A DNA stretch of 64,000 nt from Candidatus Latescibacterota bacterium (lineage in GTDB: Bacteria > Latescibacterota > UBA2968 > UBA8231): assembly GCA_963422735.1 (NCBI GenBank), contig OY730476.1, positions 2,496,001 to 2,560,000 on the forward strand. Reading direction: 5' to 3'. Both the position numbers and the translations under genes were made by a program. Within the stretch, counting starts at the first letter, position 1. Each line of letters starts with the position of its first letter. The notes under the pieces were generated by a model. It saw nothing but the letters and a program-made list of their open reading frames with translations, was not told where the DNA came from and did not search any database. Below are positions 15,260 through 58,235 of the stretch, in pieces.

Positions 15260-16519
15260 GTGAAAGAGACAGGTCTTGGCGAATATTGTGTCATGTCTGC
15301 TTGGAGTGACATGCCCTGCTTGAGGTGCTGCGGTGCATGGGCCGTGATGCTGTGGGCCACGCTCGCTGTGGTCGATGCCGCCGACACCAACGAGGCGCTG
15401 GGGGACCGCTATCTGGCGGAGGGACGCTATCGCTTGGCGGTGCAGGCCTTCGAACAGGCTGTGCGGTGTCAGCCCGAGTCGGCGGACCGCCGCCGCAAAT
15501 TGGCCGCTGCCTACGCCGAGGACCAACAATTGTCCCAGGCAGTCGCCGCCTATCAAGAGGCGATCGCCCTGCGGACCGATTACGCCAAGGCACGCACCGA
15601 GTTGGCGATTCTGCTGACCCGTCTCGACCGTCGCGACGAGGCGATGATAGCACTCGAAAAAGCAGTTGAACTCAGTCCCGATTACGCGTGGGCGCATCTA
15701 TCGCTGGGACAGCTCCACTTCAGCAAGGGGAACTACGACTCAGCGCAAGTCGCCTACCGCCGTGCCCTCGCCGCCAAAGGCGACTACGGCGAGGCTTGGT
15801 ACCATCTTGGCGAAGTCCAGCGCAAGCTGAACGGCTACGCCGCTGCCGAGCAGGCGTATCGCCGTGCCCTCGCCGCCGACTCAACGGTGGCCAAATACCG
15901 CAACGGGCTAGCCACCAGCTATTACCGCCGCCGCAATTATACCGCCGCTGTCGGAGAACTAAGGCGAGCGGTACGGCTAGATTCGCTCTATGCACCGGCC
16001 CGCTTTAACTTGGGAAATGCTCTGCTGCGCATAGGTCGGCGCGAAGAGGGCCAGCGTCAGTTGGACATTTACCGGCGTCTCGAAGAACAAGAGCGGGGTA
16101 TCGCCTCGCTAAAGAACACATTGCTGACAACGCCCGACCAAGCGACAGTCTATCACGATCTAGGCATGCTCTACTCGCGTCGCGGCCAGTACGACCAAGC
16201 CCAGATTCACTACATGCAGGCGATCTCCCGGGACACCTCGTTTGCGCCCTCGTACCACAATCTAGGCAATATCCAGTTGCGGCAGGGGCGGTTCGAAGCG
16301 GCACTCGACCTATTCCGCCGGGGCCTGCAGGCGGATTCCACCTATGTGTTGTCCTATTTGGCGCTGGGCAATGTGCAGATGCGGCTCCAGCAAGTGCCTC
16401 TGGCACTGACAAGCTATCTCCAAGGTTTGCGGTTTGCCCCGGACGATCTGCGACTCAAGCGCAACGCTGCGTTGGCTCGGCGGATCCTCGCCACCGCTCG
16501 ACAACAGGAGTCTCCGTGA
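15260..16519 (+). CDS. Exported tetratricopeptide repeat protein (cluster copy A; start uncertain)
   Basis: Tandem TPRs (AWYHLG, ARFNLGNAL, SYHNLGNI); paralogue at 49012. Confidence 0.9.
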   Translation: MKETGLGEYCVMSAWSDMPCLRCCGAWAVMLWATLAVVDAADTNEALGDRYLAEGRYRLAVQAFEQAVRCQPESADRRRKLAAAYAEDQQLSQAVAAYQEAIALRTDYAKARTELAILLTRLDRRDEAMIALEKAVELSPDYAWAHLSLGQLHFSKGNYDSAQVAYRRALAAKGDYGEAWYHLGEVQRKLNGYAAAEQAYRRALAADSTVAKYRNGLATSYYRRRNYTAAVGELRRAVRLDSLYAPARFNLGNALLRIGRREEGQRQLDIYRRLEEQERGIASLKNTLLTTPDQATVYHDLGMLYSRRGQYDQAQIHYMQAISRDTSFAPSYHNLGNIQLRQGRFEAALDLFRRGLQADSTYVLSYLALGNVQMRLQQVPLALTSYLQGLRFAPDDLRLKRNAALARRILATARQQESP

Positions 16520-18177
16520 GGTCGCACACTCGGTGGTGGGTGCTCGCGGGCATCGCTTGGCTGTTGGCACTCGGTGGTGGGGCGGTGGGTGCTGCCGCAC
16601 CTCGTTTCGTCGAGGTCACTATGGAGGCAGGCATCGACTTCCGCTATATCAATGGTGCCAGTGGGGCCAAATACATGCCGGAGGCGGTGGGATCTGGGGC
16701 GGCTTTCTTCGACGGCGATGGCGACGGTTTCCTCGACTTATATATCGTCAATGGCGCGGCTCTGCCCGGCTATGAGGGACCAACCGGCTCCAATGCCTAT
16801 TATCGCAATCGGGCTGATGGCACGTTCGTCAATGCCACCTTAGTATCGGGGACGGGGGACGAGGCCTTTGGCATGGGGGCAGCCGTCGGCGATATTGATG
16901 GCGATGGCGACTCCGACCTCTATGTCACTAATTATGGCCCCAATCGACTCTACGAAAACGACGGGTGCGCGGTCTTTGCCGATATCGCGTCCGAACTCGG
17001 TGCGGCAGACCCGGGTTGGGGCACTCACGCGGCTTTTGTCGACTACGATAGCGATGGCGACCTCGACCTCTACGTTGCCAACTATATGGACTTTGACCCA
17101 GCGCAGAATGTGGAGTGTTTTGCGGGCAAGGTGCGGTCGTATTGCGGGCCAACGACCTATCCGGGGCAAACAGGCGTCCTCTACCGCAACGACGGGGGGA
17201 GATCGTTTGCCGAAGTGACGGCAGCAGCCGGTCTGCACAACGATTCCGGTCGCCAGTTGGCGGCGGTCTTCGGCGATCTAGATGGCGATGGCGACTCCGA
17301 TCTCTTCGTCGCCAACGACAAGAAGCCCAATTTCCTTTTTGTCAATAACGGCGACGGTACCTTCTCAGAAAACGGTGCAGTGGCGGGGGTTGCCTACAAC
17401 GAAGAAGGATTAGCCGAGTCGGCGATGGGGGCCGATCTGGGCGACTACGACAACGACGGGCGGCTCGACATTATCGTCGCTACCTACCAGTGGCTGGCCA
17501 ATACCCTCTACCACAACGACGGCGACGGCTTCTTCACCGACTTGACGTTCGCCGTAGGACTAGGCGTGGCGAGTGTGCCGTATCTTGGTATGACCGCTGC
17601 CTTCGTCGATTGCGATAACGACGGTTTCCTAGATGTCTTCGTTGCTAACGGCCATCTCGACGAGAACGTCGCCGAATACGACCCTTCCACCACCTATCCA
17701 CAGCAAAACCAGTTGTTTCGCAACAGCGGCGACGGCTCCTTTATCGAGGTCAGCGACCAGAGCGGACCGGGGATGCGCGTCGAAAGGGTAAGTCACGGAG
17801 CGATCTTCGGCGATTACGATAACGATGGCGATGTTGACTTTTTTATTTCCGACTCTGACACACCCCATTGCACCCTGCTGCGCAATGATGGCGGCAATGC
17901 CAATCACTGGCTCAGGGTCCGTACCGAGGGCCGCCAGAGCAACCGGGAGGGCATCGGTGCTAAGGTGCGGGCAGTAGCTGGCGATCTGGTCCAAGTGCGG
18001 GAGGTCCGCGCTAGTTATGGCTATATGGGCAGCAACGATGTGCGATTGACCCTAGGATTGGGCCAGTATGCGACAATCGATACGCTGCAGATCTTTTGGC
18101 CCAGCGGCGCGGTGCAGACGCTAGTGGAATTGGCAGCCGACCGGGAAATCTCCGTGGTAGAGGCGGCCGACCGATGA
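16516..18177 (+). CDS. CRTAC1-family FG-GAP/VCBS repeat protein with ASPIC/UnbV C-terminus
   Basis: Signal peptide; repeated DxDGDGxxDLYVxN; 'NHWL..SNREGIGAKV...WPSG'. Confidence 0.93.
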   Translation: MRSHTRWWVLAGIAWLLALGGGAVGAAAPRFVEVTMEAGIDFRYINGASGAKYMPEAVGSGAAFFDGDGDGFLDLYIVNGAALPGYEGPTGSNAYYRNRADGTFVNATLVSGTGDEAFGMGAAVGDIDGDGDSDLYVTNYGPNRLYENDGCAVFADIASELGAADPGWGTHAAFVDYDSDGDLDLYVANYMDFDPAQNVECFAGKVRSYCGPTTYPGQTGVLYRNDGGRSFAEVTAAAGLHNDSGRQLAAVFGDLDGDGDSDLFVANDKKPNFLFVNNGDGTFSENGAVAGVAYNEEGLAESAMGADLGDYDNDGRLDIIVATYQWLANTLYHNDGDGFFTDLTFAVGLGVASVPYLGMTAAFVDCDNDGFLDVFVANGHLDENVAEYDPSTTYPQQNQLFRNSGDGSFIEVSDQSGPGMRVERVSHGAIFGDYDNDGDVDFFISDSDTPHCTLLRNDGGNANHWLRVRTEGRQSNREGIGAKVRAVAGDLVQVREVRASYGYMGSNDVRLTLGLGQYATIDTLQIFWPSGAVQTLVELAADREISVVEAADR

Positions 18178-18323
18178 GCGCACGGTGATTTTACCTGAGC
18201 GCGTGGACGGTAGTGGTGTCGGCTGCCGAGCAGGTTCCCGACTCGGCTTTGGGTGGTGTAGAGTCAGTAGCTTTGCGGCGTTTTGATCTGTCGCCGGGCG
18301 CGACGCAATAAACGGACGAGTAA
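18174..18323 (+). pseudogene. 5' relic of a further secreted protein coupled to the CRTAC1 gene
   Basis: ATGA overlap with upstream stop; MSAR*FYLSAWTVVVSAAEQVP is signal-peptide-like with TGA at a likely Trp. Confidence 0.35.
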
Positions 18324-18351
18324 TTGACAGATGATGGCTCCGCAGTAGCTT
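18324..18351 (+). promoter_or_regulatory. Possible sigma70 promoter for the foldase gene
   Basis: TTGACA-16 nt-TAGCTT upstream of RBS AAGGAG and TTG start. Confidence 0.35.
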
Positions 18352-18414
18352 TCACTGCAGTTCGCTGCAAAATCTCGCCCGCTGCGGAGAAGCGACAAAA
18401 AGGAGAGCATCTAA

Positions 18415-19845
18415 TTGCGTTTCACTGACCTTGCCAACAAATCCATCACCGGCATTGCTTGCGCGTTATTGGCCTGCTGCAGCATGGCTGCTGCCCAAAC
18501 CGAATACGTCGTACGCGTGAGCGACGAGAAAATCTCGGTTGCCGAGTTCCAACAGCGCGCCCAGAAAATGATGAAAACGGGTTTTCGCCATATCGACATT
18601 GAAGACCCCCAGGCCAAAAAGGTTTTTCTCGACGGCATCATCGCCCACGAGTTGCTCGCGCAAGAAGGGATGCGGCGCGGGCTAGACCGCGATACGGTGA
18701 TCGCCGAGGAGGTGCGGCGCGTCGAAGAGCAGGCGTTGCGGAGCAAGCTCTACGAGGTCGCGGCACTGACGGGCGATTATTTGTCAACCGAAGAAGAGTT
18801 ACGGGCGTTTTTCGTCGAGCGGCAGTTCGACGCGGAGGTCTATAGCCAGCACATCGTCTGCGCCACCGAGGAAGAGGCGTGGGAAGTGCTGGATCGACTC
18901 GGCAAGGGCGAGACATTTGCCGAGCTTTTTCCGCTCTATTCGGTGCCGCACATTCAGAAACGTTTTGCGCCAGCCGGTCGGGTCGGTTGGGTTAAAACCG
19001 GCGGCTTGCTGCCCCCGTTGATCGAACCAATCAAGAGCATGAAGCCAGGCGAGGTCTATCCGCAACCGGTCGCGACCAGTTCGGGTTTCCATGTCTTCAA
19101 GCTCGAAAATCGGCGCAAGACGGATTTTGCCGCGACCCGGGACTGGTTGGAACGCCGATTGCGCGAGGTGAAGCGGGGGCGGGATATGGAGGCCTATGTC
19201 GGCGAATTGCGCCGGCGCTATGCGCTGACTCTGAACCCAGAGACGATGCAGCAATTGCAGGCGCTAGCCCCCGGGGTCAAGGCGTGGTCGGGGGAGGATC
19301 AGGTGTTGCTTAACTGGCAGGGCGGCGAGCTGACGCTCGGCGAATATCTGGAGTATCACCGCTTGGGCCGGGTCAAACATCCGGCGTCCCTCGACAGTGC
19401 CGGGTTGCACAAGGCCGCCGACGGGCTGGCGGGACGGGAGATCATGTTGGCAGAGGCCCGCAAGCTAAAGCTCGATGATGATCCAGAGATCAGGATCAAG
19501 ACCAAGACTCGCCGCGACGAATTGCTGATTCAGTGGCTCTATCGCGTCGAGGGCAAGGCGGTCGCGCTGGAGCAGGACGTGCCGGAAGGGGAAGTACGCA
19601 CGTTCTACGACGAAAACACCGATATGTTTACTCGTCAGGACGGGGAGGTTGCGGACTTTGATCTGGTTCGAGATAGCATTCGCGGGGCGCTGCTCACTCA
19701 TAAAGAAAATAAAGCGATGGATGATCTGATCGCCCGGCTACGGGAGGAACGCAAAGGGGAAATAGAGATTTATCTCATAGGTTTCGACCGCGCCCAACTC
19801 GTGCGGCCCGTTGCCCCTGCGAAGCCAGAGTCATTGCTAGAGTAA
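18415..19845 (+). CDS. Exported PpiC-type peptidyl-prolyl isomerase/foldase (SurA/PrsA-like), copy A
   Basis: Signal peptide; 'QHIVCATEEEA..L.KGETFAEL', 'GRVGW', 'PVATSSGFHVFKL'. Confidence 0.88.
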   Translation: MRFTDLANKSITGIACALLACCSMAAAQTEYVVRVSDEKISVAEFQQRAQKMMKTGFRHIDIEDPQAKKVFLDGIIAHELLAQEGMRRGLDRDTVIAEEVRRVEEQALRSKLYEVAALTGDYLSTEEELRAFFVERQFDAEVYSQHIVCATEEEAWEVLDRLGKGETFAELFPLYSVPHIQKRFAPAGRVGWVKTGGLLPPLIEPIKSMKPGEVYPQPVATSSGFHVFKLENRRKTDFAATRDWLERRLREVKRGRDMEAYVGELRRRYALTLNPETMQQLQALAPGVKAWSGEDQVLLNWQGGELTLGEYLEYHRLGRVKHPASLDSAGLHKAADGLAGREIMLAEARKLKLDDDPEIRIKTKTRRDELLIQWLYRVEGKAVALEQDVPEGEVRTFYDENTDMFTRQDGEVADFDLVRDSIRGALLTHKENKAMDDLIARLREERKGEIEIYLIGFDRAQLVRPVAPAKPESLLE

Positions 19846-20043
19846 GACGGAGGTATATCTAACGCTTCTGTGAATTTCTAATTGGATTCTTTGTTGGCGT
19901 GTATTATATTACGCCACACAAGCTGCAGGGTAATAGCCGTTTTTACCTATGCCAATCGTGTAGGTAGAATGTTTAAGTCAATATTTTATACGTATAATGC
20001 GTAACGTAATATCGTAATAACCTCCAAAGAAAGGGGATTGCAG
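19846..20043 (+). promoter_or_regulatory. AT-rich promoter region of the core operon with palindrome over the -10 box
   Basis: Sharp GC drop; perfect palindrome TTATACGTATAA (19986-19997) overlapping TATAAT (19993-19998). Confidence 0.55.
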
Positions 20044-20967
20044 ATGCGTAAACTTATCCTGATGGGTGTGTTCAGCTTAGCTTTTGTTGGGCTGGCGAAT
20101 GCCCAGTTTAATGACCCTCCCGCACTGGAGAACCGCAATGGTAGTATGGGCTTCCAGTGGTACATGCTCGAAGTGCCCGACGATGCCAATATGGTGATGG
20201 ACGGCAAGGCCGATGATTGGGACTGGTGGGATCCCGAATACACTATTGTCACCGAGGAGTTCCGCGATGAAGCCGATCGCCCATCGCCGACCCGCGACGA
20301 CCTTAGCCTCACTCTGTTTATGGGGTGGAAGGGAGGCGATATCAACCGCTGGTTTGTGTTCTTGGAGATCGTCGATGACACGTTGCATCATCACGGTACC
20401 AACATCGAGCGCTGGGAAGGCGAGATGATCGAGTTTGCTCTCGATCCTCAAGATCACGGCCGCGAATTGCCCTCCGGTTACAACATGGAGTGGCTCGGTG
20501 CGCCTGGCGATCTGAGCCCGCCCGCCAATATCCGCTACCGCTGGCTGGATCAGGAGGCTTGGATACAATACGGCGATCCAGAATACATGGACTATTCGGT
20601 GACCGTTGACCCGCCTGAAGCTTGGGCAGCTGATATCTGGCCTACTGGCGGTACTACAGTCTATGAGTTCAACTACGTAGTCCTCTGGTTCCACGAGGAT
20701 GGCGGCCCTTCCGTCAGCCAAGTCCATCAGCTCGACAGCGTCGCCGGTGAAGATGGTTTTGGCCTGCCGTTCTCCTTTTGGATCGAGGACGGCGATTCCA
20801 GTGCGCCCGACAACGACCTCACCTCGCGCGGCCCCGAGGCTTCGGCCCGCCAGTACTACTCGCACGCCTTGCTGCTGCGGACCGGCGAGTATGTTGATGG
20901 CCGTGGCGATGTTGGGACTGCGGTGGAGAATTCGACCTGGGGTCAGATCAAGCACGCCTATAAGTAG
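20044..20967 (+). CDS. Secreted acidic CBM9/DOMON-like protein with C-terminal TAVENSTWGQIK tag (copy A)
   Basis: Signal peptide; 'MDGKADDW' start typical of DOMON/CBM9-like folds; paralogue at 63124. Confidence 0.8.
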   Translation: MRKLILMGVFSLAFVGLANAQFNDPPALENRNGSMGFQWYMLEVPDDANMVMDGKADDWDWWDPEYTIVTEEFRDEADRPSPTRDDLSLTLFMGWKGGDINRWFVFLEIVDDTLHHHGTNIERWEGEMIEFALDPQDHGRELPSGYNMEWLGAPGDLSPPANIRYRWLDQEAWIQYGDPEYMDYSVTVDPPEAWAADIWPTGGTTVYEFNYVVLWFHEDGGPSVSQVHQLDSVAGEDGFGLPFSFWIEDGDSSAPDNDLTSRGPEASARQYYSHALLLRTGEYVDGRGDVGTAVENSTWGQIKHAYK

Positions 20968-20993
20968 GCCTTACCTAGTCGGTTAGCAGAGAG

Positions 20994-21034
20994 GTAATTC
21001 GGGGCAATGGGCGTTTGCCATTGCCCCGAATTGC
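20994..21034 (+). terminator. 15-bp perfect stem-loop after first operon gene (attenuator or mRNA stabiliser)
   Basis: AATTCGGGGCAATGG-7 nt-CCATTGCCCCGAATT; weak U tail. Confidence 0.7.
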
Positions 21035-21065
21035 TTGAGTGTCGCCCATGATAAGGATCTAGCAC

Positions 21066-21803
21066 ATGCGCGGATTGTGGTTGATTGGCATCTTGCTCAC
21101 CATAGGGGGCTGTGGCCGCTATTTCCCACAAGACCTGCGGCCGATGGCCCAACAGGCGGAAGGGATGGTGGTCAACGACGATGGCTCGGTCACGTATACC
21201 CTCAGTCGTCTGGCCATCAATCTCAAGCCGATGATCGACGCTGAACTCAACCGGCAATTTCCCGCCGCCTCTACTGGCGGTGCGGCTTCGACCAACCCCT
21301 ACACCTTCGGCGACTGGCAGATACCTGGCGAGGATTGGACCCGGCCGCGCTTTACCGTGATCCAGCTCAAAGTGAGAAATTACCAGTTCCCCAAAGTCGT
21401 AATTGACCCGCAAAAGGCGACGATTGCCTCGACTAACAACAGAATCTACCGATCGCTTTCCTACGCCCAGCTTTATACTTATTTCCGTGCCTTCTGGCAG
21501 GGGCGTACCGGCCAGGGTCGAGTCGCCTTCAAAAGCCGCACCAGTATCCTCCGACAATCCATGTACACCGAAGCGACCACCGTCTTTAGCGGAAGCGAAC
21601 AAGAGGGTTATCTGGTTTTCCCCCTGCTCGACAACGACGTGACGAACATCCGCCTTGATCTCGAAGATATTGCCGTCCGCTTCAACTACGCTGGCGAAGC
21701 GGTTGAAACGATCAATCTCAGCTTCTCGTTCGAACGCGAGGTGCTGCGGGGATATCATCTTTCGGATGCGCAGCAGGCGAGCGCGGCCGCAGAGCGAGAA
21801 TAA
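21066..21803 (+). CDS. Uncharacterised lipoprotein (copy A)
   Basis: Lipobox-like LTIGG-C; 'NPYTFG.W', 'GRTGQGR', 'GYLVFP' shared with 62278..62991. Confidence 0.85.
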   Translation: MRGLWLIGILLTIGGCGRYFPQDLRPMAQQAEGMVVNDDGSVTYTLSRLAINLKPMIDAELNRQFPAASTGGAASTNPYTFGDWQIPGEDWTRPRFTVIQLKVRNYQFPKVVIDPQKATIASTNNRIYRSLSYAQLYTYFRAFWQGRTGQGRVAFKSRTSILRQSMYTEATTVFSGSEQEGYLVFPLLDNDVTNIRLDLEDIAVRFNYAGEAVETINLSFSFEREVLRGYHLSDAQQASAAAERE

Positions 21804-21840
21804 CGGCGTGTACATTCGTCCTCTACATCTATAGTTAAAA

Positions 21841-23835
21841 ATGATCACTATCTGGATCAGAGCCGCGGCCCTATGTCTATGGATCACTGCGGCCCATGGC
21901 CAGGTAGAGGTCTATCAGGTCGGTCGCGGAGGTCTGTCGTGGACCGATCAAGCCTCCGTGCAGACCGGGGCAGTGGAAAGCGATGGCTCGCTGCAATCGC
22001 TCGAACTGGCCAGCGGCCAAAATTTGATCCAGCTACTGCGCGATTCCGGCCTGACTTGGTTAAAGGGACAGCCCCCTGATTTCACGGCAGTGGGTCAGCC
22101 GCGGGCGTGGTCCAATGACGGCCTATTCAACCAGATCAACGGTCCCCTGCGCTTGGTTGACGGCGACCCAAGCAGCTCCTCCGAGGGCAGCTTCAAGAGC
22201 GTCCGCAATCAGGCGGGAGCGACCTTCTCTTGGGATCTGGGTTCCCCTTTCCCGATCAATCGAGTGCGCTTCTACCCCGACCCCAACGATCCCGACTCCT
22301 TTATCAAGGCTTTTGAGTTGCTGGTCAACGACGGAGCCGACTTCAACGAGATCAACCGACCCACCTATCAGTTGCTGCGGAGAGTGGAGGGCAACCGCAA
22401 CCAAGTCGTCGATTTGGAATTTCTGCCCCTACAGGGTCGTTTTCTGCAGCTCAAGGTTTTGTCCAAGTCGGCTTTCAACTTGGCCGAATTTGAAATTTTC
22501 GGCGAGGGTTTCGTGCCAGTGTCGAGTTATGTCTCCGACCTGCACTCTTTTGGCGAAGCAGTCAATTTCGGGCAACTGCGGATTCACTCCACCAAGCTGA
22601 TACGTGGCGCTGGAGGCGAGGATCGGCGGCCAGCCGCCATCCTGCAGATGCGCAGCGGTGCCGACGACACACCGCTGTCCTACTTTCGCCGCGACCGCGA
22701 CACCGGCTCTGTTGCGGAGGTCTCGTTCGCCGAGTACAACGCCGATCTGCCACGGCGTGCCTTGTTCCGCCAGGATCCCAGCACCGGCGATGTACTCGAG
22801 GAACTAGAGCGGGTTGACTATCTAGAACTGCCGGCGGAAGAGCAAGGGCCGGTGCGCGACTTCGTCAAGGGCGATATCCGCGACGACGGGGGCAACTGGA
22901 GCCCGTGGTCGACACCTTTGACAATCGACGCGACGGGCACCCTAATCCTGCCGGTCAATCTACCCAGCCCGCGCGAGTTTTTTCAGTTCCGCTTCTTTTT
23001 TCAGGGTGACGCCGAGACCACGATCCGCATCGACACCCTGAGTTTGGAGCATTCGCCTGCGCTCGTCAGCAACGCGGTAGGCGAGGTGGCACTGGCAAAT
23101 GATCTAAGTCCGCAGGGCAGGATTATCGCTGTTGCGGGCGGAGTGGATACATCTTTTGTCTACGACATCCGCGCCGATTTCGACGCGGAGGGGTTGGCGG
23201 GTTTTCGCGGCATCAAGCTGGCGGCTTTCCCTCCGCCGGTTTTTTCCGGGCTGCAGGTGGGCGATCCGCTCGTTGCTGTTGGCGATGTCGTGGTTGCGGA
23301 GACTGCCGATGGCTTTGAGGTATTTTTCGATCCCGTGCAAGAGGCCAACAATCAGCCGTTGCGAGTTACCTTCAAATTGCGGCTACTCGAGCACAATACG
23401 CCAGTCAACGCTTGGCTGCTAGGCGCGGGCGAGGTGCCGCCTCATCCTATTTCGGTCGGCGATGCCAGTAGCGATGTAGGCACCGGGACGATCAATATCT
23501 TCACGCTCGATTCCCGTCCAAAAATCGAAATCCAGCTTTTGACACCGATTGTCACGCCCAATGGCGACGCGGTCAATGACGCGGTCGACATCGACTTCGT
23601 CTTGGCCCAATTCGCCGGGGATCTCGAGGTCGATATCGGCGTTTTTAACCTGTCCGGCGTCGAGGTACGCCGGCTCGTCTCCGGCATGCTATCCGCAGGG
23701 GCGCACCGCGAGGCGTGGGACGGCAAGGGAGAGAGCGGCGCAATGGTGCCGCCGGGGATCTATATCATTCGGTTTTCCGTCAAGGCCGATGCAGAAGCCC
23801 TTGAAACCGCCAAGTTAATAGGGGTGGCGTATTGA
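21841..23835 (+). CDS. Secreted protein 1 with discoidin-like region and FlgD-Ig/T9SS type-B-like C-terminus (copy A)
   Basis: Signal peptide; 'WDLG..FPINRVRFYP', 'AEFEIFG', 'WSPWS', 'TPNGDAVND...WDG...VPPGIY...GVAY'. Confidence 0.85.
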   Translation: MITIWIRAAALCLWITAAHGQVEVYQVGRGGLSWTDQASVQTGAVESDGSLQSLELASGQNLIQLLRDSGLTWLKGQPPDFTAVGQPRAWSNDGLFNQINGPLRLVDGDPSSSSEGSFKSVRNQAGATFSWDLGSPFPINRVRFYPDPNDPDSFIKAFELLVNDGADFNEINRPTYQLLRRVEGNRNQVVDLEFLPLQGRFLQLKVLSKSAFNLAEFEIFGEGFVPVSSYVSDLHSFGEAVNFGQLRIHSTKLIRGAGGEDRRPAAILQMRSGADDTPLSYFRRDRDTGSVAEVSFAEYNADLPRRALFRQDPSTGDVLEELERVDYLELPAEEQGPVRDFVKGDIRDDGGNWSPWSTPLTIDATGTLILPVNLPSPREFFQFRFFFQGDAETTIRIDTLSLEHSPALVSNAVGEVALANDLSPQGRIIAVAGGVDTSFVYDIRADFDAEGLAGFRGIKLAAFPPPVFSGLQVGDPLVAVGDVVVAETADGFEVFFDPVQEANNQPLRVTFKLRLLEHNTPVNAWLLGAGEVPPHPISVGDASSDVGTGTINIFTLDSRPKIEIQLLTPIVTPNGDAVNDAVDIDFVLAQFAGDLEVDIGVFNLSGVEVRRLVSGMLSAGAHREAWDGKGESGAMVPPGIYIIRFSVKADAEALETAKLIGVAY

Positions 23836-25916
23836 TCCGTTCAAATACCAGAGCATGTGTGGTGCTGCTGTGGTTGCAGGGTGCGGCTTGGGGGCAGGCA
23901 ATGGATGCGGCTTGGGTTGTCGGCGGAGCCAACGGAGAGCCTTGGGCCCAGGCGCGCGAGCGCTGGATTGCCCTCGACGACACTAGCCGCGTCGGGTCGA
24001 TCCAGCCGCAGGAAATTCCGCGTGGCCACAGCGTTATGCGCGAATTGGTGCGGACCACCGGGATTTCGAGCCAGCGCAATATCTTCGGCTACACTTGGAA
24101 TTTCTCCAAAGGCCCGATCACTCTCGAGGGCGACACCTTGCGGCTAGGCTGGAATCCGCGGCTGTGGGACGCCGGCGGGCGCGAGGCGGGCACGGTAGCG
24201 ATCTCGCGCGGATTAGTCGATGGGGACGGGCTGAGCCCGGCTTTCCTGCACGCCGAACGCACCGATGGTTTGCCGACGGTTGACAAGTTTTTCACGCTCG
24301 ACCTCGGCGTACCGGTGCCGATTGACAGCATCTCCTTTTACCCGCCGCAGAGCGGTCTATTCGAAGACGGTCGGCGGCAGCGGGCACTGTTTCCGGTCGC
24401 CTATGAGGTCAGCCGCGCCAATACGCCGGTGGACTGGCTGATTTTTGAAGATGAAGATGTCTCGACCGGGACAAATGGCTACCATCCCCTAGAAGAGACC
24501 TTGGGTAGCACCTTCACCAACAATACCAGCGTCGTCTCGTTGAAAGCCGGGCTGCGCTTCACCCGCTTTTTGCGCTTCAAGTTCGGCGGCGTGACCTCTA
24601 CCGGGATGCTCGCGGAAGTCGAGGCCTTCGGACGAGGTTTCCCCGCCGAAGGTCGCTATATCTCAAAAGTCCATTCTTTCGCCGGGCAGGTCAGCCTTGG
24701 TCGGATCACTTGGAACTTCACCAAATACCGCCAAGCATCTTCGGGCGAGGTCTCGGTTGATCCGGCGGCCCCGGTCGAGTTGCTGCTCCGCACCCGGGCG
24801 GGGATCGACGCCGACCCGATCGATTACTTCATCTTTGATGAGCTCGGTCGCCAAGTTTTGGTAGATCGGGAGAGCTATTTCGATGGGCCACCGCCGCGCA
24901 GCCAGTTCGAGATATCGTCGGTCAATTCGGGCGGGCTTGCCGGTTATCGGGCTTCGCGTTCCGACGATATTACCCATTGGAATAATTGGTCGGTGCCCTA
25001 CCAGATGTCGGGCGACGAGATCCGCTCTTCCGACGGCAGGGAATTTTTCCAGTTCCGCTTCGAGATCAAGACCGCCGACCCGCTCGCCTTCGGCGTCCTC
25101 GATTCGGTGGCCTTCGAGTTTTCGCCGGTGCTGGCCGATAGCGTACTGGGGGAAGTGTCGCTAGCAGGGTTGGCCGAGGACCAGCAAGGCGTGGTGGAAG
25201 TGCCATTGGGGATAGATACGCTTTTCGTCTATGATATTCGCACTGTATTCGGCACGGGTGCCCGCCCCGGTTTTGACGGCGTCGAGCTCGATGTGCCTGC
25301 GGGGGCACGTTTCGTCGGCTTGGAGCGGGATGGGGCCGAGTTGCTGGAGGGAACGGATTTCTCCCAACAAACCGCTGCCGGTCGCCTGCGGATTCTCTTC
25401 ACCGAACCAATCGCCGAGGACGCGGTTTTGCGGCTCCGCTTCCGCAGCGCGATCTACCAAGCCTCCGTTTTTATGGAAGGACGGATATTCAACAGGGGCG
25501 CCGCAGTCGCAAGCTTGCCACAGTCGATTGAGTCGGGCAACGCTCGCACGGAGGGCGGCAGCAACGGCATTCAGGTGGTGGCGACCGAGGTCAAAACGCG
25601 TGTTATCGGAGATCTATGGCTTTCGTCCCCGGTCATCACTCCCAACGGAGATGGGGTCAATGAGGAGACCATGGTTTCCTTCAACCTGTTCGGCGTCGGC
25701 GGTGCTGGAGTCCGAGTCGAGATCTACGACCTAGCCGGGCATCGGGTCTCCTCGGTGCTAGACCAACAGGCCATTGCCGGACCCTACGGACCCAGTTGGT
25801 CAGGGCAGGACGGAGGGGACGGATTAGTCGCGCCGGGGATCTACCTGATTGCGGTTGAGGTAGATGTGGATCGGGGCATCCAAACGCTGTTCAAACCCGT
25901 CGCAGTGATCTATTAA
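23832..25916 (+). CDS. Secreted protein 2 with FlgD-Ig/T9SS type-B-like C-terminus (copy A)
   Basis: TTG overlapping upstream stop; 'TLDLGVPVPID', 'AEVEAFG', 'WNNWS', 'TPNGDGVNE...PGIY...AVIY'. Confidence 0.85.
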   Translation: MIRSNTRACVVLLWLQGAAWGQAMDAAWVVGGANGEPWAQARERWIALDDTSRVGSIQPQEIPRGHSVMRELVRTTGISSQRNIFGYTWNFSKGPITLEGDTLRLGWNPRLWDAGGREAGTVAISRGLVDGDGLSPAFLHAERTDGLPTVDKFFTLDLGVPVPIDSISFYPPQSGLFEDGRRQRALFPVAYEVSRANTPVDWLIFEDEDVSTGTNGYHPLEETLGSTFTNNTSVVSLKAGLRFTRFLRFKFGGVTSTGMLAEVEAFGRGFPAEGRYISKVHSFAGQVSLGRITWNFTKYRQASSGEVSVDPAAPVELLLRTRAGIDADPIDYFIFDELGRQVLVDRESYFDGPPPRSQFEISSVNSGGLAGYRASRSDDITHWNNWSVPYQMSGDEIRSSDGREFFQFRFEIKTADPLAFGVLDSVAFEFSPVLADSVLGEVSLAGLAEDQQGVVEVPLGIDTLFVYDIRTVFGTGARPGFDGVELDVPAGARFVGLERDGAELLEGTDFSQQTAAGRLRILFTEPIAEDAVLRLRFRSAIYQASVFMEGRIFNRGAAVASLPQSIESGNARTEGGSNGIQVVATEVKTRVIGDLWLSSPVITPNGDGVNEETMVSFNLFGVGGAGVRVEIYDLAGHRVSSVLDQQAIAGPYGPSWSGQDGGDGLVAPGIYLIAVEVDVDRGIQTLFKPVAVIY

Positions 25917-25934
25917 CGGCCTAGCGAGAAAAAG

Positions 25935-28292
25935 ATGAGACGCCCATTGAACCAAATACTGGCTGTGGCGGTAGCTGCCGCGTTATCAGGAGCAGAGCTG
26001 GCTGCGCAGGATCTGGTTTTCAGCGGATTGGATTTCGACGCTTGGGATCATCCCCGAGGCTTGGTCAACGTCCGGGAAGACGGCATCGGGGTCAAGCGCT
26101 TCGGCAAGACCTTCAATGCGGTGGCCAATGCCAACGAGTTCTCATCGGTTATCATCGGCGATCTCTACGGCAGCATCCGACCGGTGCGCACCCCCTCGAA
26201 CCAAGCTGACGCCCACTTGATCGCCGACCAAGATCCCAATACTTGGTGGAAGCCCGTTGCCACCGACCCGACGGAGAACTTCTGGGTGGAGCTCGATCTG
26301 GGTCGGGCGGTAATCGCCGAGAATATCCGCGTGGTCTTCCCCGATACCACCAACGCACGACCGTTTACGTTTTTCTCGATATTCACCAGTCCGGGGGTGC
26401 GAGTGGCTTTCGGCGGGGGCAACCGGATCGTCTTCAATCAGGTCGGCCGTCCGATCAACAACAACACCGAGCGCGTAGTCGAATTCCAACTCGAAATGGA
26501 TAAGGACGCGTCGCAGAAATTCTCGCCGGTGCGCTTTGTGCGCTTCGAGGCCGCCGGCCGCACGCCCGACGCGGCACTAGCCGAGATTGAGGTTGACGGC
26601 GTAGGGTTCAACATCGCCTCTAAGGTCTCGATCGAACGCCGGATTGAGCGCGGCGACGAAGGGTGGGGTGGGCGGACTTGGACTTCGGATGCACGCGAAT
26701 GCGCGGACCGTGCCTGCGGGCGCGGCAGCGGTGCCGAGGCGCTAATCGACGAGGACTTAGGCTTTCGCATGTGGAATATCGAGGCGGTTATCAAAAGCGG
26801 CGATTGGCGCGATTCGGGTTACTGGGGTGTGGTCGATTTTGAAAACGTCTTCCGCGTTGACCGAGTAGTTTGGTTGCCCTATGTCAGCGGCGTTGGCCCC
26901 TATCCGTACGCCCATTTTTCCGGCGGCTGTGGTTGGTCTAACCAAGAGTTATTCACTTCGGACGGAACGCCCAGCAAGACCGCGATCCCGGAAGTGGAAG
27001 GCCCTTTTGAATACGGACTGCTCGCCGCGGACACCGGCAACAAGGGCATCTACGATTTTCAGTTCCCGCCGCGAGCAGTGCGGTTGATCAACTGGCGCGT
27101 GCCTAGCGGGTCCGGTAATTGCCGGGCGTTGCAGTGGTGGATCTTCCACAGCGAGGGCTATCCCGCTCGCATCTCCATTGAGTCGGTCGATCTGCCGATG
27201 GGCGGTGCGCGAAGTATCCGCCGGGTCGAGTGGGATGCCGATCTACCGCCTGGCACCCGGGTCGAGGTGCAGACTCAGACGGGCAACGGCTTCCAGAATA
27301 TCAAGCGCTACTACTTGACCAATGGCAAGGAAGTCACCAAGGAGGGCTACGAGGCGGCCAAGAGGCGCCAGCGCGGCGATATAGTCGATGAGAGCATCCG
27401 AGACGCCTCTTGGAATACTTGGAGCAACCCGCACCGCTTCTCGGGGCAGGCCTTCCAGTCGCCGACGCCCCGGCAATGGTTGCAGGCTCGCGTGGCGTTA
27501 ATCAGCGATGATCCCGAGGTCTTCCCCAAACTGCGTTCGCTGACTTTTGTGGCCAGCGATCCGGTGATTTCTTCCGGGCTGAGTGGCAGCGTCTTGCCGA
27601 GGGAGGCCGCATTGGATTCGCTGACGGAATTCCGCTATACGATCAAGCCGGCGGCCTTCAACCGCAGCGACGTGGGTTTCGACCGGGTGTTGATCACTCT
27701 GCCTATAGGTGGTGTTGGGGCCAATTTGGTGCAGGCGACGGTCGGCGGGGTCGAGGTCGAGGCGACCAGCGCGCTGCAAGGGGATTCACTGCTAGTGCAG
27801 TTGCCCCCGCCCGTAGTCCGGCGCGATTCGGTGGAGATTGCCTTTACAACACGCGTATTCGCAAGCCCGACGGTTTTCGAAGCGTTCGCCTTCAATTCCG
27901 CGCAGACCGACAACACCCAAGGCGTACTGCCGGTGGTTTTCGGGGCCGACTGGGTTTTCGTGCCAGACGCGGTGGCCGATGGGGAGCTGGTCCGCAAGCT
28001 CGGTCACACCGATATATTCACGCCGAACCAAGACGGAACCAACGACCTTTATCAGCTAAGTTTTATCGTGGTAAAGACCGAGAAGCAACCACGAGTGCGG
28101 ATCTTTGCCCTCAATGGGGTCCAAGTCGCCGAGTTGGCCAACCACAATCCCGCGGGCAACCAAGCGCAATACGCTTGGGATGGCACCACAGCCTCTGGGA
28201 CGGTACCCCCGGGGGTCTATCTGGTGCATATTTCCGTGCCCGCCGACGCCGGGGAAGAAGTGGTCCAGAAGCTCTTACACGTAGCATACTGA
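25935..28292 (+). CDS. Secreted protein 3 with FlgD-Ig/T9SS type-B-like C-terminus (copy A)
   Basis: Signal peptide; 'WVELDLGRAV', 'AEIEVDG', 'WNTWS', 'TPNQDGTND...WDG...VPPGVY...HVAY'. Confidence 0.85.
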   Translation: MRRPLNQILAVAVAAALSGAELAAQDLVFSGLDFDAWDHPRGLVNVREDGIGVKRFGKTFNAVANANEFSSVIIGDLYGSIRPVRTPSNQADAHLIADQDPNTWWKPVATDPTENFWVELDLGRAVIAENIRVVFPDTTNARPFTFFSIFTSPGVRVAFGGGNRIVFNQVGRPINNNTERVVEFQLEMDKDASQKFSPVRFVRFEAAGRTPDAALAEIEVDGVGFNIASKVSIERRIERGDEGWGGRTWTSDARECADRACGRGSGAEALIDEDLGFRMWNIEAVIKSGDWRDSGYWGVVDFENVFRVDRVVWLPYVSGVGPYPYAHFSGGCGWSNQELFTSDGTPSKTAIPEVEGPFEYGLLAADTGNKGIYDFQFPPRAVRLINWRVPSGSGNCRALQWWIFHSEGYPARISIESVDLPMGGARSIRRVEWDADLPPGTRVEVQTQTGNGFQNIKRYYLTNGKEVTKEGYEAAKRRQRGDIVDESIRDASWNTWSNPHRFSGQAFQSPTPRQWLQARVALISDDPEVFPKLRSLTFVASDPVISSGLSGSVLPREAALDSLTEFRYTIKPAAFNRSDVGFDRVLITLPIGGVGANLVQATVGGVEVEATSALQGDSLLVQLPPPVVRRDSVEIAFTTRVFASPTVFEAFAFNSAQTDNTQGVLPVVFGADWVFVPDAVADGELVRKLGHTDIFTPNQDGTNDLYQLSFIVVKTEKQPRVRIFALNGVQVAELANHNPAGNQAQYAWDGTTASGTVPPGVYLVHISVPADAGEEVVQKLLHVAY

Positions 28293-28332
28293 TGCAAAGC
28301 TTTGCCTTCACAAACCTATGGGAGGGGTGACG

Positions 28333-30981
28333 GTGAAACATAGAACTCTGCTATTGCTGGCTTGCCTGAGCGTAGCGCTATCGCTGCCGCCAAAGTCCAG
28401 TGCCCAACGCGAGACCGGCTTTGAAAACCCTTATTACACGTCTGGGGCAGAGATCGCGCCTTCGACCCTTGTGCCAACTGTGCGCAAATGGTATTTGCCG
28501 CAGCGCCTCTACTCGCTCTACGACTGGCGGCAGGAGCAGTATTCCAACTACGCGCGCAACCTTTACGAGCGCTATAACGACATCTTTCTCGAAGGCTCGC
28601 CCTTCTACGATGTGTACGGCAATTACATCACCCAGGGCTGGCAGGTGTACAATTGGACCGAGGACTACCCTACCCAAAACGGCAGCAACATTAGCAAAGA
28701 CCCGCGTTTTACCTCTTGGTTCAACAACATACTGATCGCTTCGAGCCATTCCGGGCAATTCCACTCCTCCCTGATGGTCGGCGATGGGATCCGCACGACC
28801 CTGACGCCGCTGACATTTTCCAAACCGCGTTTCGATGGGGTGCAGTGGGATCTGATGACCGACAAATACGCGATCACCCTGCTGTCCTCACGCGTCAACA
28901 ACACCGGCCGGGTCGCCGAGGAGGAAGGCGCGGCCGGGGTGCAGTTCACGACATTTACCAACCTCTGGGCCGCCCGGGGTCAGGTCGGTGTTGGGGATTT
29001 TGCCAAGTTGGGTTTGACCTTTGTCAACGCCGCCCACCGCAATTCCGATGTGCCCTTCGGCGACAACTCGCTACAGGGCTTGTTGAGCGGGCCGATGAAC
29101 GCCGATTTTGTGCGCTCGATCATCGTGCGGATCTCCGATGACTCCCCGGAGGATGGCGAGGGGGGGGCGCTATTGTCGCGCTGGCGCATCTTCGTCAATG
29201 GCGTCGAGCACACCGACGACATTGAGCCTACGGTCGAAGGCGGCCTGCGCCGTCGCGGCGTGATTGAGGCCAGCGGCCCGGACGTTATTACCCTGACCTT
29301 CAATATCGAGGATTTCTCGTCGAGCGAGGAGGACGAAATCGACGATTTCCGCCAGATCAAGTTCGTCGAGATCGGCCTAGTGTTGGCCAACGACTACAAG
29401 GTGGAGATCACCTCTAACAAGCAGACCAACCAGCTTGGTACGCCGGTATTTTTGCCGATGCTGCGCGCTCCGGGCAATGTCAAGGACGGGTCCAATCAGG
29501 CCTTCCACCGCTTCCGCTATGGCCTGCCGACGGCCAACCGCATGTTGGGTTTCGACCTAGCGATCAGCGATGTAGCCGGTTTTGAGTTGCGCGGCGAGTT
29601 CGTGCAGAATTCGCAGTACCGCCGCTATCCCAACGAGAATTTTACCCGACGCCAAGCGCTGGCCAAAAAGGAGGCCAATGCCTTCTATTTGACGGCCCAG
29701 CAGCGCTCCTACCCTTGGACGGTCTTTGTCGAGACCTTCAGCATTGACTCCGACTATTCGACCCGCGCCTTCATACCCAACGCCGAGGGCGATGTCCACT
29801 ACGACAGCGAGGAGCGCAATGTCTTCGAGTTTGTCGATGACAACGACGACCAAGACGAACTCCCCGACTGGAGTCGGCGCTATTTCGGTTCCCGCGTCAA
29901 CACCCGTCAGGGCCGGGGGCTATTGACCGATAACGCGGTCTTCCCAGGCATTGACGAGGACAACGATGACATCTCCGATTTCAACCGCAACTTCAACCGC
30001 GAGCCGGACTACGCTGAGCCGTTCCTGCGCTTCGAGATCGAGCCCCCCGAGTTCCTGTTCGGGATGGACATGAACAACAACACGGTCATCGACCGCTTCG
30101 AGGACGACACCCAAGCCGACTACCCCTATAAGCTGGGGCACCGTGGCTTCAACGTCTATGTCGGGCTGGAAGTGACGCAGGGGACCAACCTAATGGTCGG
30201 TCGTCTCGACGAGCGGTTGTTGAACACGGCTCGTAAGAACAGGTCGACCTACCTGCTGCTGACGACGAAAAAGGAGATGCCTGAGAAGAATCTCCGAATG
30301 CGCTTAGTCGTCAATCCGCGCAAGGTCAAAGACGATATCCCCGACGACGTTTTCCTGTGGGTCGATACGCCTGGCACTCGAGGCAGCGCGGTCTTGACCC
30401 GCGACCAGTTGGTGGCCCGGGACGTATTCGTCAACGCGATGTTCTTCGAAGTGCAGTACGACCGTTTCTTCCCTTTTACCACCAAGGTCAAGCACGAACT
30501 GTACAATCTATTAGGCACACCCCAAACAGGGCGCCGGGACCAGAGCTTTCTTGGCGTGGTCAACAAGGGCGAATACCCTCTCTCATTCAGGGAGTGGGAC
30601 TTCCTGCCGCGCTGGAAACAGCTCTACAGCAGCCGCACTCCGGCCGATCAAGGCGTCTTAGAGACTCAGGAGTTGACCGAGATATTCTCCATCCAAGCCA
30701 CGCGCGATATCAACGATAACATCGGCGTCACCGTCGGGGCCGAATACGAGTTATTCTACAACTTGCGCGAGCGGATAGTCCCACTACTGCCAGGTTATTT
30801 GGAGGACGGCAAGACCCTGATTTTGGCCGGGCAGATCGCCAATAGCTCTAGCTATTTAGGGTACGCGTTGACTACCAATGTCGGCGTGCGCTGGGTGCGC
30901 CAAGATCTGTTCGCCACGCCGCCGGCGTCCGATTTATTTTCCTTTATCACCGTTTTCGCAGGGCTGGGCACCGACCGCTAG
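28333..30981 (+). CDS. Large exported protein with Asp-rich Ca-binding-like repeats, putative outer-membrane beta protein (copy A)
   Basis: GTG after GGAGG; signal peptide; DDNDDQDELPD, DEDNDDISD, DMNNNTVID; amphipathic beta-like stretches; paralogue at 52980. Confidence 0.8.
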   Translation: MKHRTLLLLACLSVALSLPPKSSAQRETGFENPYYTSGAEIAPSTLVPTVRKWYLPQRLYSLYDWRQEQYSNYARNLYERYNDIFLEGSPFYDVYGNYITQGWQVYNWTEDYPTQNGSNISKDPRFTSWFNNILIASSHSGQFHSSLMVGDGIRTTLTPLTFSKPRFDGVQWDLMTDKYAITLLSSRVNNTGRVAEEEGAAGVQFTTFTNLWAARGQVGVGDFAKLGLTFVNAAHRNSDVPFGDNSLQGLLSGPMNADFVRSIIVRISDDSPEDGEGGALLSRWRIFVNGVEHTDDIEPTVEGGLRRRGVIEASGPDVITLTFNIEDFSSSEEDEIDDFRQIKFVEIGLVLANDYKVEITSNKQTNQLGTPVFLPMLRAPGNVKDGSNQAFHRFRYGLPTANRMLGFDLAISDVAGFELRGEFVQNSQYRRYPNENFTRRQALAKKEANAFYLTAQQRSYPWTVFVETFSIDSDYSTRAFIPNAEGDVHYDSEERNVFEFVDDNDDQDELPDWSRRYFGSRVNTRQGRGLLTDNAVFPGIDEDNDDISDFNRNFNREPDYAEPFLRFEIEPPEFLFGMDMNNNTVIDRFEDDTQADYPYKLGHRGFNVYVGLEVTQGTNLMVGRLDERLLNTARKNRSTYLLLTTKKEMPEKNLRMRLVVNPRKVKDDIPDDVFLWVDTPGTRGSAVLTRDQLVARDVFVNAMFFEVQYDRFFPFTTKVKHELYNLLGTPQTGRRDQSFLGVVNKGEYPLSFREWDFLPRWKQLYSSRTPADQGVLETQELTEIFSIQATRDINDNIGVTVGAEYELFYNLRERIVPLLPGYLEDGKTLILAGQIANSSSYLGYALTTNVGVRWVRQDLFATPPASDLFSFITVFAGLGTDR

Positions 30982-31018
30982 GTCGCCGGAGTTCAGCAAT
31001 TGCCCGAAGGCCGGCCGC

Positions 31019-36007: not shown

Positions 36008-36051
36008 CGCCTATGGCCCCGGGTGCGCTCTTTGGCAGTGATCGCCGGTCA

Positions 36052-48958: not shown

Positions 48959-49011
48959 GGATTTGTCCTATGAGTTTGTCGGTAGTACTAGCTCAGTCTA
49001 TACTTTCTATT

Positions 49012-50199: not shown

Positions 50200-50688
50200 T
50201 GCCGCGCACCTCGTCGCTGTGGGCTATCGTTGTATTCGTCGCGCTCGCGGCGGCCGAGCCAGCCCCGCAATTTGTGGAGATCACCGAGGAAGCGGGCCTA
50301 GATTTTCGCTATGTCAACGGGACCAGTGGCCACAAGTACATGGTGGAAGCGGTCGGCTCGGGTGCGGCCTTTTTCGACAGCGACGTGGATATATTCGTCT
50401 CGGACTCGGCCCCCGCTGCGCAATACGGGGCGGCAATGCCAACCACTGTCTGACGATTGAGGCCGTTGGAACCGCGAGCAACCGGGATGGCTTGGGTACG
50501 CGTCCGCGCCGTGGCCGGCGACTTGGTGCAGACGCGGGAGGCTCATGGGGTCCAGCGACGTGCGCCTGACGCACGGCTTGGGCGACCACAGGGTCGATAC
50601 GCTGCAAGCCCATTAACCCAGCGGAGCGGTGCAGACGCTGGTGGGCGTGGAGGCCGATCAGCGCATTGTGATTCGGGAGGATCGTTGA
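50196..50688 (+). pseudogene. CRTAC1/ASPIC-UnbV paralogue collapsed by internal deletion (copy B)
   Basis: GAAFFDSD fused directly to VDIFVSDS, then frameshifted NANH..SNRDG..AVAGDLVQ..PSGAVQTL. Confidence 0.85.
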
Positions 50689-55625: not shown

Positions 55626-55645
55626 GGAGTGCTCCCTCTTAATAC

Positions 55646-55867
55646 CTGACGTTACGCAGTGGTTTGTCGCCGACGAACCCGTCCATGCAGGCGGTGCCCA
55701 ACCGGTGGGGCCCGCTGGCTTCCTGCTTCCGCAGAAAGGACCCCTGCCCCCGTTGAGGGCCGAACCAAGGTGCAGGCCCAAAGCTCGTCATTGCCGCACA
55801 GGCGTGACATCCAGTAGGAGGAGGCGGGGCGAAACCACGCATGGTGTGGCAAACTGCGTAACATCTG
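55646..55867. mobile_element. ~222-bp MITE-like insertion with imperfect 15-bp TIRs inside the copy-B operon
   Basis: CTGACGTTACGCAGT ... ACTGCGTAACATCTG (2 mismatches); TAATA on both flanks; absent from the copy-A spacer. Confidence 0.7.
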
Positions 55868-58225: not shown

Positions 58226-58235
58226 AGTGCCTCCG

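Follow-up and report, generated by a model that had tools for sequence, protein, structure and literature searches.

A recurrent six-gene envelope module in Latescibacterota combines a predicted outer-membrane barrel of no recognised family with type-B-like secretion tails

We analysed a window of 64,000 nucleotides, bases 2,496,001-2,560,000 of the single-contig, 4.95-Mb genome (~60% G+C) of Candidatus Latescibacterota bacterium (contig OY730476.1). The window holds two copies of a six-gene module, D-E-F-G-H-I, in which genes for proteins with C-terminal domains (CTDs) like those of type-B cargo of type IX secretion systems (T9SS) stand next to the gene for a predicted outer-membrane beta-barrel. 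On the plus strand, eleven open reading frames (ORFs), here called A1 to K1, follow one another in a run between 15.2 and 34 kb. An initial annotation of this DNA had described the first nine as a single cluster of exported proteins. Its observation was partly confirmed, and most of it was borne out: the places and order of the genes agree with ORF calls, and a hydrophobic N-terminus could be read from the sequence of all nine products (9/9). Pfam and NCBIfam put names on five kinds of genes in this first copy, namely A, B, C, F/G/H and K. The products of D (309 amino acids, aa), E (245 aa) and I (887 aa) had no Pfam match even at E <= 10.

I1 (28318..30981, +) also had no NCBIfam match at E <= 0.01, and so matched neither PF11751 nor TIGR03519. 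Its AF2 model (mean pLDDT 67.4, with 80-90 in the barrel parts) consists of a highly conserved N-terminal stretch at residues 30-130, which was not modelled, six strands, an inserted beta-domain at ~243-395 and ~20 further strands. The Asp repeats noted in the initial annotation correspond to conserved Asp/Asn-rich loops with invariant columns at about 505-603. No cysteine was found among the invariant or near-invariant columns of a 28-sequence alignment. The best Foldseek matches were MtrB, SlpA, FimD and LptD, with TM scores of only 0.2-0.3. Over the whole barrel, VIA-align ranked FimD best (Z 14.8; 329 residues, rmsd 7.7, 13% identity, model 147-881 against chain 137-632), with BtuB (14.5) and FhaC (14.1) tied. 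Because the model is barrel-like, the fold matches are tied and no sequence family was recognised, I is, as modelled, an outer-membrane barrel of no recognised family.

This undescribed family is large. Among 7,999 candidates scored, at least 1,020 were relatives of I. None of the 120 relatives listed carried a Pfam domain, and those with names were hypothetical proteins from Latescibacterota or from metagenome-assembled genomes (MAGs) labelled Gemmatimonadota. In a set of 1.84 billion representatives, the family made up 953 clusters when the limit was E <= 1e-3 and 307 when it was E <= 1e-30, which gives at least 953 clusters at 50% identity that have neither a name nor a Pfam model. In a scan that took one genome from each prokaryotic species, 582 relatives were found, and the best 64 loci were titled Latescibacterota/Latescibacteria or Gemmatimonadota/Gemmatimonadetes, apart from L043 ('uncultured bacterium').

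Directly upstream of the barrel gene lie F1 (21841..23835, +; 664 aa), G1 (23832..25916, +; 694 aa) and H1 (25935..28292, +; 785 aa). As had been proposed, these are mutual paralogues (24-27% identical; G1 and F1 are 27% identical over 729 columns). F1 is a secreted discoidin-type protein that matched F5_F8_type_C (33.2 bits, cut-off 28.2), FlgD_ig (35.2, cut-off 27) and CHU_C (22.9, cut-off 27). G1 matched CHU_C (19.9 bits) and FlgD_ig (18.8 bits), both below cut-off. The type-B-like CTD of H1, at residues 692-770, scored 31.7 bits with CHU_C (cut-off 27) and 28.7 bits with TIGR04131 (cut-off 35). A six-frame scan of the genome with CHU_C gave 36.1, 27.1 and 23.6 bits for H1, F1 and G1. The CTDs of all three thus match CHU_C, TIGR04131 or FlgD_ig, and the type-A models were not matched at E <= 0.01. 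A discoidin (F5/8-type-C) domain was found in F, weakly and below cut-off in H, and not in G. Sequence searches of the PDB with F and H returned FlgD Ig-domain matches only. With the H family profile, the FlgD Ig domain came up at 6e-07 and, at 0.0035, a galactose-binding-like protein; the latter hints at a second galactose-binding-like domain in this family. Judged from sequence, the discoidin/CBM32-like domains and the CBM9-like domain of D point to binding of glycans or glycoconjugates.

The three paralogues are preceded by E1 (21066..21803, +), a 245-aa lipoprotein. Its lipobox (..IGGC, followed by GRYF) had been predicted and is conserved in 14/14 aligned orthologues, with Cys16 invariant. 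The AF2 model of E (pLDDT 88.9) is an Ig-like beta-sandwich with helices, and its fold matches were weak (YcdA, Z 8.0; YjhA, Z 7.7; MPT63; ApaG).

The first gene of the module, D1 (20038..20967, +), encodes a secreted protein that the initial annotation had called CBM9/DOMON-like. The call is supported in three ways, each of them weak. D had a language-model (Atlas) feature score of 0.97 against clusters carrying PF06452 in 13-100% of their members; two of 12 D orthologues matched CBM9_1 (PF06452; best E 2.5e-07), with no match for D1 itself at E <= 10; and the top matches of the D family profile in the PDB were xylanase CBM9 modules (E 0.053 and 0.25). Each of the eight D-like genes that tblastn found in the genome had an E-like gene within 5 kb, and an F/G/H-like gene as well. 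D also ends in a conserved tag, TAVE..[ST]WG.[IV]K..[FY], that is kept in orthologues down to 24% identity. The 'TWG' tail had been recognised before, and we found that WG.[IVL]K ends 39 ORFs in the genome against ~7 expected by chance. Of these, 26 are D-sized, and for 21 of the 26 an I-like gene is no more than 12 kb away. The same tag ends ~10 small proteins that are not D-like (126-272 aa; for example G000:C1:1133134-1133751 and 2670681-2671289), mostly far from barrels. Since other small proteins carry it, the tag looks modular, which suggests a modular sorting or docking signal.

D1 is followed by a hairpin with a perfect 19-bp stem (20992..21036, +; minimum free energy, MFE, -47 kcal/mol; z -4.3), which was matched by none of 200 shuffles and upholds the hairpin proposed at this place. 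The spacer between D and E was structured (z <= -2.5) in 35/38 related loci, with a median z of -4.5, compared with 4/25 for the H-I spacer and 5/23 for the G-H spacer. The stem sequence differs between the two copies in the window. A scan for intrinsic terminators found 17 against 19.7 expected and missed the hairpin after D1, as this has no U-run. As the hairpin after D is strong and conserved, we read D as made in excess of the downstream products, and suggest that the hairpin may be a device that makes D more abundant. A sigma-70-type promoter had also been proposed before D1 (19942-19970, 9/12 positions), but such sites occur at chance level (7 found, 7.2 expected). In contigs of four RNA-labelled runs, relatives that were 90-95% alike spanned D to I (X2, X3 and X5, from two studies), and those in X1 were 99% alike. 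The D-bearing contig was the deepest in word depth in 4/4 of these runs; contig depth cannot rank genes and DNA may be present, and we did not use this as evidence for excess D.

The second copy of the module lies between 49 and 64 kb. There the core genes I2 (52980..55781, -), H2 (55868..58285, -), G2 (58236..60293, -), F2 (60290..62278, -), E2 (62278..62991, -) and D2 (63124..64000, -) are inverted relative to their TPR and PpiC genes. I2 is 71% identical to I1 over 883 residues from ORF residue 52, and its ORF, as listed, probably starts too far upstream. H2 (58% identical to H1; CHU_C 28.2 bits), G2 (56% identical to G1), F2 (59% identical to F1; FlgD_ig 31.5 bits) and E2 (58% identical to E1; lipobox ..VGAC, followed by GRYF) are likewise paralogues of the first copy. 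D2, a tagged CBM9-like protein 60% identical to D1, has its 5' end outside the window; as a genome ORF it covers 2559124-2560131 and ends in ..TAVESSTWGKIKDSF. The hairpin after D2 (63063..63094, -) has a 14-bp stem followed by a U-run, and its spacer (MFE -51.6 kcal/mol, z -4.9) was again matched by none of 200 shuffles.

The accessory genes of the first copy are A1 (15260..16519, +), an exported TPR protein of 419 aa (Pfam TPR families, E down to 1.8e-45); B1 (16516..18177, +), an FG-GAP_3 and UnbV_ASPIC protein of 553 aa (PF13517, 9.1e-50; PF07593, 2.2e-19); and C1 (18415..19845, +), a PpiC-type rotamase of 476 aa with a SurA-like N-domain (SurA_N; PF13145, 2.4e-12; PF13624, 5.2e-07) and presumed to be a periplasmic foldase. 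Pfam agreed with the identities given to all three by the initial annotation. In the second copy, A2 (48943..50199, +; Pfam TPR) is 53% identical to A1 and has a possible lipobox (..AVVGC) as read from its N-terminus, and C2 (51511..52911, +; PF13145, 1.2e-13) is a PpiC rotamase 47% identical to C1. The FG-GAP/ASPIC gene B2 (50196..50679, +) is a broken remnant. About 60 codons at its start are intact, a stop ends the frame after ~85 codons, and the C-terminal pieces are in another frame; tblastn aligned the pieces with B1 residues 29-60, 450-485 and 503-549, in frames that differ. Eight of the nine genes thus recur at 49-64 kb, rather than all nine as had been claimed. Elsewhere in the window, a lone 35-residue fragment that is 86% identical to B1 residues 343-377 lies upstream of a polysaccharide-deacetylase-like gene (8174-8278, -). 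The initial annotation had also taken the recurrence as a sign that the module moves. The copies are 47-71% identical across their genes, and a relative with a 96%-identical I holds both copies ~29 kb apart on one contig (L020, L039). Because this relative keeps the same pair, we read the duplication as old and inherited, with no sign of movement.

We then determined how well the gene order is kept in related loci, taking in the 46 loci in which the flank upstream of I reached 8.7 kb or more. In 39 of them, D-E-F-G-H-I occur in this order on one strand. Of the seven exceptions, six have insertions that push the first genes beyond the fetched flank and one has none of the five genes. Order and strand are held in paralogues down to 24-50% identity. 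The claim of a syntenic envelope module therefore stands for this six-gene core, and neither Pfam and NCBIfam models nor the papers searched describe the core as a module. In the published literature we found no description of the module, no paper that joins Latescibacter with type IX secretion (T9SS) and none on DUF6785; the portion of PMC4454575 that we could consult makes no mention of the module. The claim that all nine genes are kept as a unit holds only in part. Genes A, B and C are near the core in most related loci, but before it, after it or inverted. The 'nine-gene cluster' consists of two modules, which are also found separately: the D-E-F-G-H-I core and a looser set of TPR, FG-GAP and PpiC genes, with or without DUF6785.

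Co-occurrence within the genome shows the same division. By tblastn (E <= 1e-8, coverage >= 0.5), the genome has 30 I-like copies, five of them at only 24-28% identity, 76 F/G/H-like, 17 E-like and 13 PpiC (C-like) copies, together with 40 FG-GAP/ASPIC, 26 TPR (A-like) and 26 DUF6785 genes. An F/G/H-like gene lies within 5 kb of 90% of the I-like barrels and an FG-GAP gene within 5 kb of 69% of the TPR genes. On the other hand, just 12% of the FG-GAP genes, and likewise 12% of the DUF6785 genes, have an I-like gene within 5 kb; among the 13 C-like genes 54% do. TPR and FG-GAP/ASPIC pairs form a recurrent module of their own that does not depend on the barrel cassette and in which PpiC or DUF6785 often takes part; an FG-GAP/ASPIC gene lies within 5 kb of 35% of the 26 DUF6785+DUF6784 genes. 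Cassette variants in the genome include two barrels in tandem and fewer paralogues. Barrel neighbourhoods (the barrels with 9 kb of flank on each side) cover ~490 kb of the 4.95-Mb genome. The most distant I-like barrels are a tandem pair at 25% identity (genome 2324621-2329910, in the region 2312-2339 kb; L092 12370-13970, L093 13000-16296), which adjoins ExbB/ExbD/ExbD, a 1,098-aa TPR protein and DUF4159 proteins.

The CTDs of F, G and H relate the module to type IX secretion. In Bacteroidota, according to the parts of the papers available to us, type-B cargo binds, or depends on, a PorP/SprF barrel that is cognate and encoded alongside it (PMC9143113; PMC12618676), one barrel can serve several cargos (PMC12618676), and the cargo remains surface-held and barrel-bound (PMC9143113). 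The initial annotation had invoked this pairing and had named porK/L/M/N, sprA, porV and porU as genes to look for. Of these, the translocon and shuttle are present in the genome, as SprA (SprA_N 84.3 bits), PorU (632 bits, over the cut-off) and PorV (65 bits, adjoining PorU), and GldK, GldL and GldM were not found. Neither PF11751 nor TIGR03519 (PorP/SprF) matched anywhere in the genome; their controls were also silent, so absence is not proven. CHU_C finds 107 tails in the genome, and we kept 78 in which the model was covered from position 7 or earlier at E <= 1e-3. An I-like gene lies within 10 kb of 59 of these 78 full-length type-B-like tails, compared with 10.6% of random points. Conversely, 29/30 barrels have such a tail within 10 kb.

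The same association was seen across the phylum. Among 168 species-level Latescibacterota genomes, SprA was found in 160, barrel I in 107 and a TIGR04131-type tail (E <= 1e-5) in 80. All 80 tail-positive genomes also have the barrel. In the same class, the 56 genomes of three families lack barrel and tail alike, and SprA is present in 55 of them. Because the genomes are kin, we treat the co-occurrence as a pattern and not as a statistical test. The expectation that type-B CTD cargo goes with a co-encoded barrel thus fits both within the genome and across the phylum.

We suggest, with confidence about evenly divided, that the modules are surface-display complexes fed by the T9SS, with lectin-type heads and with barrel I in place of PorP/SprF as the cargo partner. 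All products would cross the inner membrane via Sec, as read from their N-termini. Barrel I would then enter the outer membrane, probably aided by the neighbouring SurA/PpiC-type foldase. F, G and H would leave through the SprA translocon encoded elsewhere, using their type-B-like CTDs, and gene linkage and cross-genome co-occurrence suggest that the barrel would receive them and hold them at the surface, a job like that of PorP/SprF. E probably faces the periplasm, because the GRYF that follows its cysteine is basic and aromatic, and may be a scaffold there for the conserved N-terminal stretch of the barrel. D, probably made in excess, would join or coat the complex through its C-terminal tag. 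With ~30 diverged copies there would be a wide range of binding specificities for use in adhesion or capture. The initial annotation's interpretation is partly supported by these results. Its parts list does resemble a surface assembly, with an outer-membrane platform, an over-produced small subunit and three CTD-tagged paralogues. The assembly is not self-contained, as the SprA, PorU and PorV genes lie elsewhere in the genome. That it fits no known class was overstated, since part of the concept has a counterpart in the available parts of PMC9143113 and PMC12618676, which pair type-B cargo with a cognate barrel.

Several points weigh against this proposal. Contacts between the products are proposed from gene linkage and co-occurrence, and the compared genomes are related, so that counts of co-occurrence make the cases look more independent than they are. 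What is proposed for D and E is guesswork. Of the 78 tails, 19 are more than 10 kb from any barrel, and 27 barrel-positive genomes have no tail at E <= 1e-5. In the single-protein Pfam/NCBIfam scores, only H1 passed the cut-off of a type-B model (CHU_C); TIGR04131 stayed below its cut-off and G1 was below all. GldL, GldM and GldK were not found, with no GldK over the cut-off; the GldL and GldM controls were silent, so absence is not proven. I has no homology to PorP/SprF, is three times larger, and lacks an invariant cysteine, unlike SprF, whose tail cysteines bond to GldK according to the accessible part of PMC12635249. A bolder version of the proposal, which we regard as rather unlikely, makes the I barrels a second, unrelated class of type-B-CTD receptor. 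A minimal T9SS (SprA/PorU/PorV, without GldKLMN and PorP) would load the lectin trios, the tagged, excess D would be polymerised or docked on the barrel, and each cassette would build a distinct surface organelle not seen before, of which a cell could display ~30.

The carbohydrate-binding-type domains and the ~30 diverged copies per genome would also suit capture and import in the manner of a polysaccharide utilisation locus (PUL). F, G, H and D would bind a polymer or nutrient, barrel I would be the uptake channel with its inserted domain as a gate, and DUF6785 or ATP-binding cassette (ABC) transporters of the inner membrane would complete the route, each set serving a different substrate as SusC/SusD pairs do. 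In keeping with this, I has about 24-26 strands and an internal beta-domain, and its alignment to TonB-dependent transporters is no worse than to anything else (BtuB, above). In L020 and L021, as in the window, I is followed by DUF6785, and several neighbourhoods contain ABC permeases or binding proteins and sugar-acid-type catabolic enzymes. However, I had no Plug or TonB_dep_Rec match at E <= 10, ExbB/ExbD occur at one neighbourhood only, that of the distant 25%-identity barrels, and few DUF6785 genes lie near a barrel (the 12% given above). We surveyed the ORFs within ~9 kb in 20 barrel neighbourhoods outside the window, where 125 of 269 were labelled as relatives of A-K. Of the 144 left, 56 had any Pfam family and none matched a glycoside hydrolase, polysaccharide lyase or sulfatase at E <= 1e-5; the recurrent families were PpiC (4), DUF4159 (4), TPR (3), ABC permeases (5) and GDSL (2). 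The lack of carbohydrate-active enzymes (CAZymes) nearby weakens the import reading, which we keep as a rival of low probability.

The hairpin right after D instead recalls chaperone-usher operons, as hairpins follow major pilin genes. D could be the excess major subunit of a fibre or coat, polymerised or threaded through I with its C-terminal strand as donor strand, while E would be a periplasmic holder and F, G and H minor or tip lectins. The D tag is a short, modular C-terminal element that also occurs on the ~10 small non-D ORFs, E is an Ig-like sandwich, and FimD was the top whole-barrel match of I. Ushers are barrels of 24 strands whose plug lies after the sixth, between strands 6 and 7, and in the model of I the inserted beta-domain also comes after six strands. 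The FimD score, however, was tied with unrelated barrels. The usher family PF00577 had no match in the whole genome at E <= 0.01, with a positive E. coli control, and the model of I ends in the barrel, without usher C-terminal domains. E is a single-domain lipoprotein whose best folds are DUF4352-type and not PapD-like chaperones, and the T9SS tails on F, G and H indicate a different export route. We consider usher-like assembly quite unlikely. It is also conceivable, but in our view highly improbable, that the genes have no joint function and are co-located envelope genes of an expanded family held together by ancestry. The loci come from ~30 related MAGs of one phylum, and their shared order may partly be inheritance. 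Against this, order and strand persist in the diverged paralogues, stop and start codons overlap or abut at F/G (23832-23835), G2/F2 and E2/F2, and barrel and tail are gained or lost together at the family level.

Among the known systems closest to the module are the T9SS type-B and PorP/SprF sets of Bacteroidota (SprB-SprF, Fjoh_3952-Fjoh_3951 and PG1035-PorP-PorE), in which type-B-like cargo genes directly adjoin a barrel gene; PorE, a TPR/beta-propeller periplasmic partner, recalls the TPR and FG-GAP genes near the module. Unlike PorP/SprF, barrel I has 887 aa, about 24-26 strands, an inserted domain and Ca-type loops, with no detectable relation. Conserved barrel cysteines are lacking and GldKLMN were not found in the host. 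Three fixed paralogous cargos, a lipoprotein and a tagged CBM9-like protein are present, in ~30 copies per genome and in Latescibacterota. Like SusC/SusD loci of Bacteroidota, the module has many diverged copies of a big outer-membrane barrel beside surface glycan-binding-type proteins, and FG-GAP/ASPIC proteins adjoin SusC/D genes in some Bacteroidota. It differs in having no TonB-dependent receptor or SusD signature and no degradative CAZymes nearby, and its binding proteins are T9SS-tagged rather than lipoproteins. Chaperone-usher operons (FimD/PapC) resemble it in that a hairpin follows the gene of a small subunit and that a similarly sized barrel has an extra domain after strand 6, and they gave the best whole-barrel alignment. 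The module shows no sequence relation to ushers, no PapD-like chaperone and no pilin fold, and the structural score is tied with unrelated barrels. Proteins with fused CBM9_1 and DUF5916 also associate a CBM9/DOMON-like domain with a large outer-membrane beta-barrel, but D and I are separate genes and unrelated to them in sequence. One such fused outer-membrane protein (750 aa; 40244-42496, -) lies in the window between the two cassettes. We rejected D and I as a split form of it, as hhalign gave a probability of 0.2 for the I profile against this DUF5916 protein and D was unrelated by BLASTP.

Other genes lie around the two copies. K1 (31963..33918, +) is a loose neighbour, a polytopic membrane protein of 651 aa with ~12 hydrophobic segments and DUF6785+DUF6784 (PF20581, 1.7e-85; PF20580, 5.2e-20). 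Between I and K is the orphan ORF J (30878-31966, +; 362 aa as listed), which overlaps the end of I and has ~10 hydrophobic segments. It matched no Pfam family, and neither the 64 related loci nor the rest of the genome contain a relative. L020 and L021, the closest relatives, have K about 200-420 nt after I, so that the window locus has ~780 nt extra. Directly downstream of the DUF6785 gene is an Opp/Dpp-type ABC peptide transporter (34155-38879, -) with two permeases, a family-5 binding protein and an ATPase. Between the copies, G+C falls to 0.514 at 42001-44271, compared with ~0.59 around it, and the dip coincides with a fragment (43603-44271, -) that looks like the C-terminal end of a subunit of a type I restriction endonuclease.

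Latescibacterota occur widely but are uncultured, and to our knowledge nothing has been established about their cell surface. If barrel I is the partner of type-B T9SS cargo, cargo anchoring evolved at least twice in the FCB group (Fibrobacterota, Chlorobiota and Bacteroidota), and type IX export would be open to study in a lineage that seemingly lacks the Bacteroidota motor and PorP. The D tag would be a new sorting or docking signal. With their binding domains, the cassettes are candidates for holding particles, hosts or glycans.

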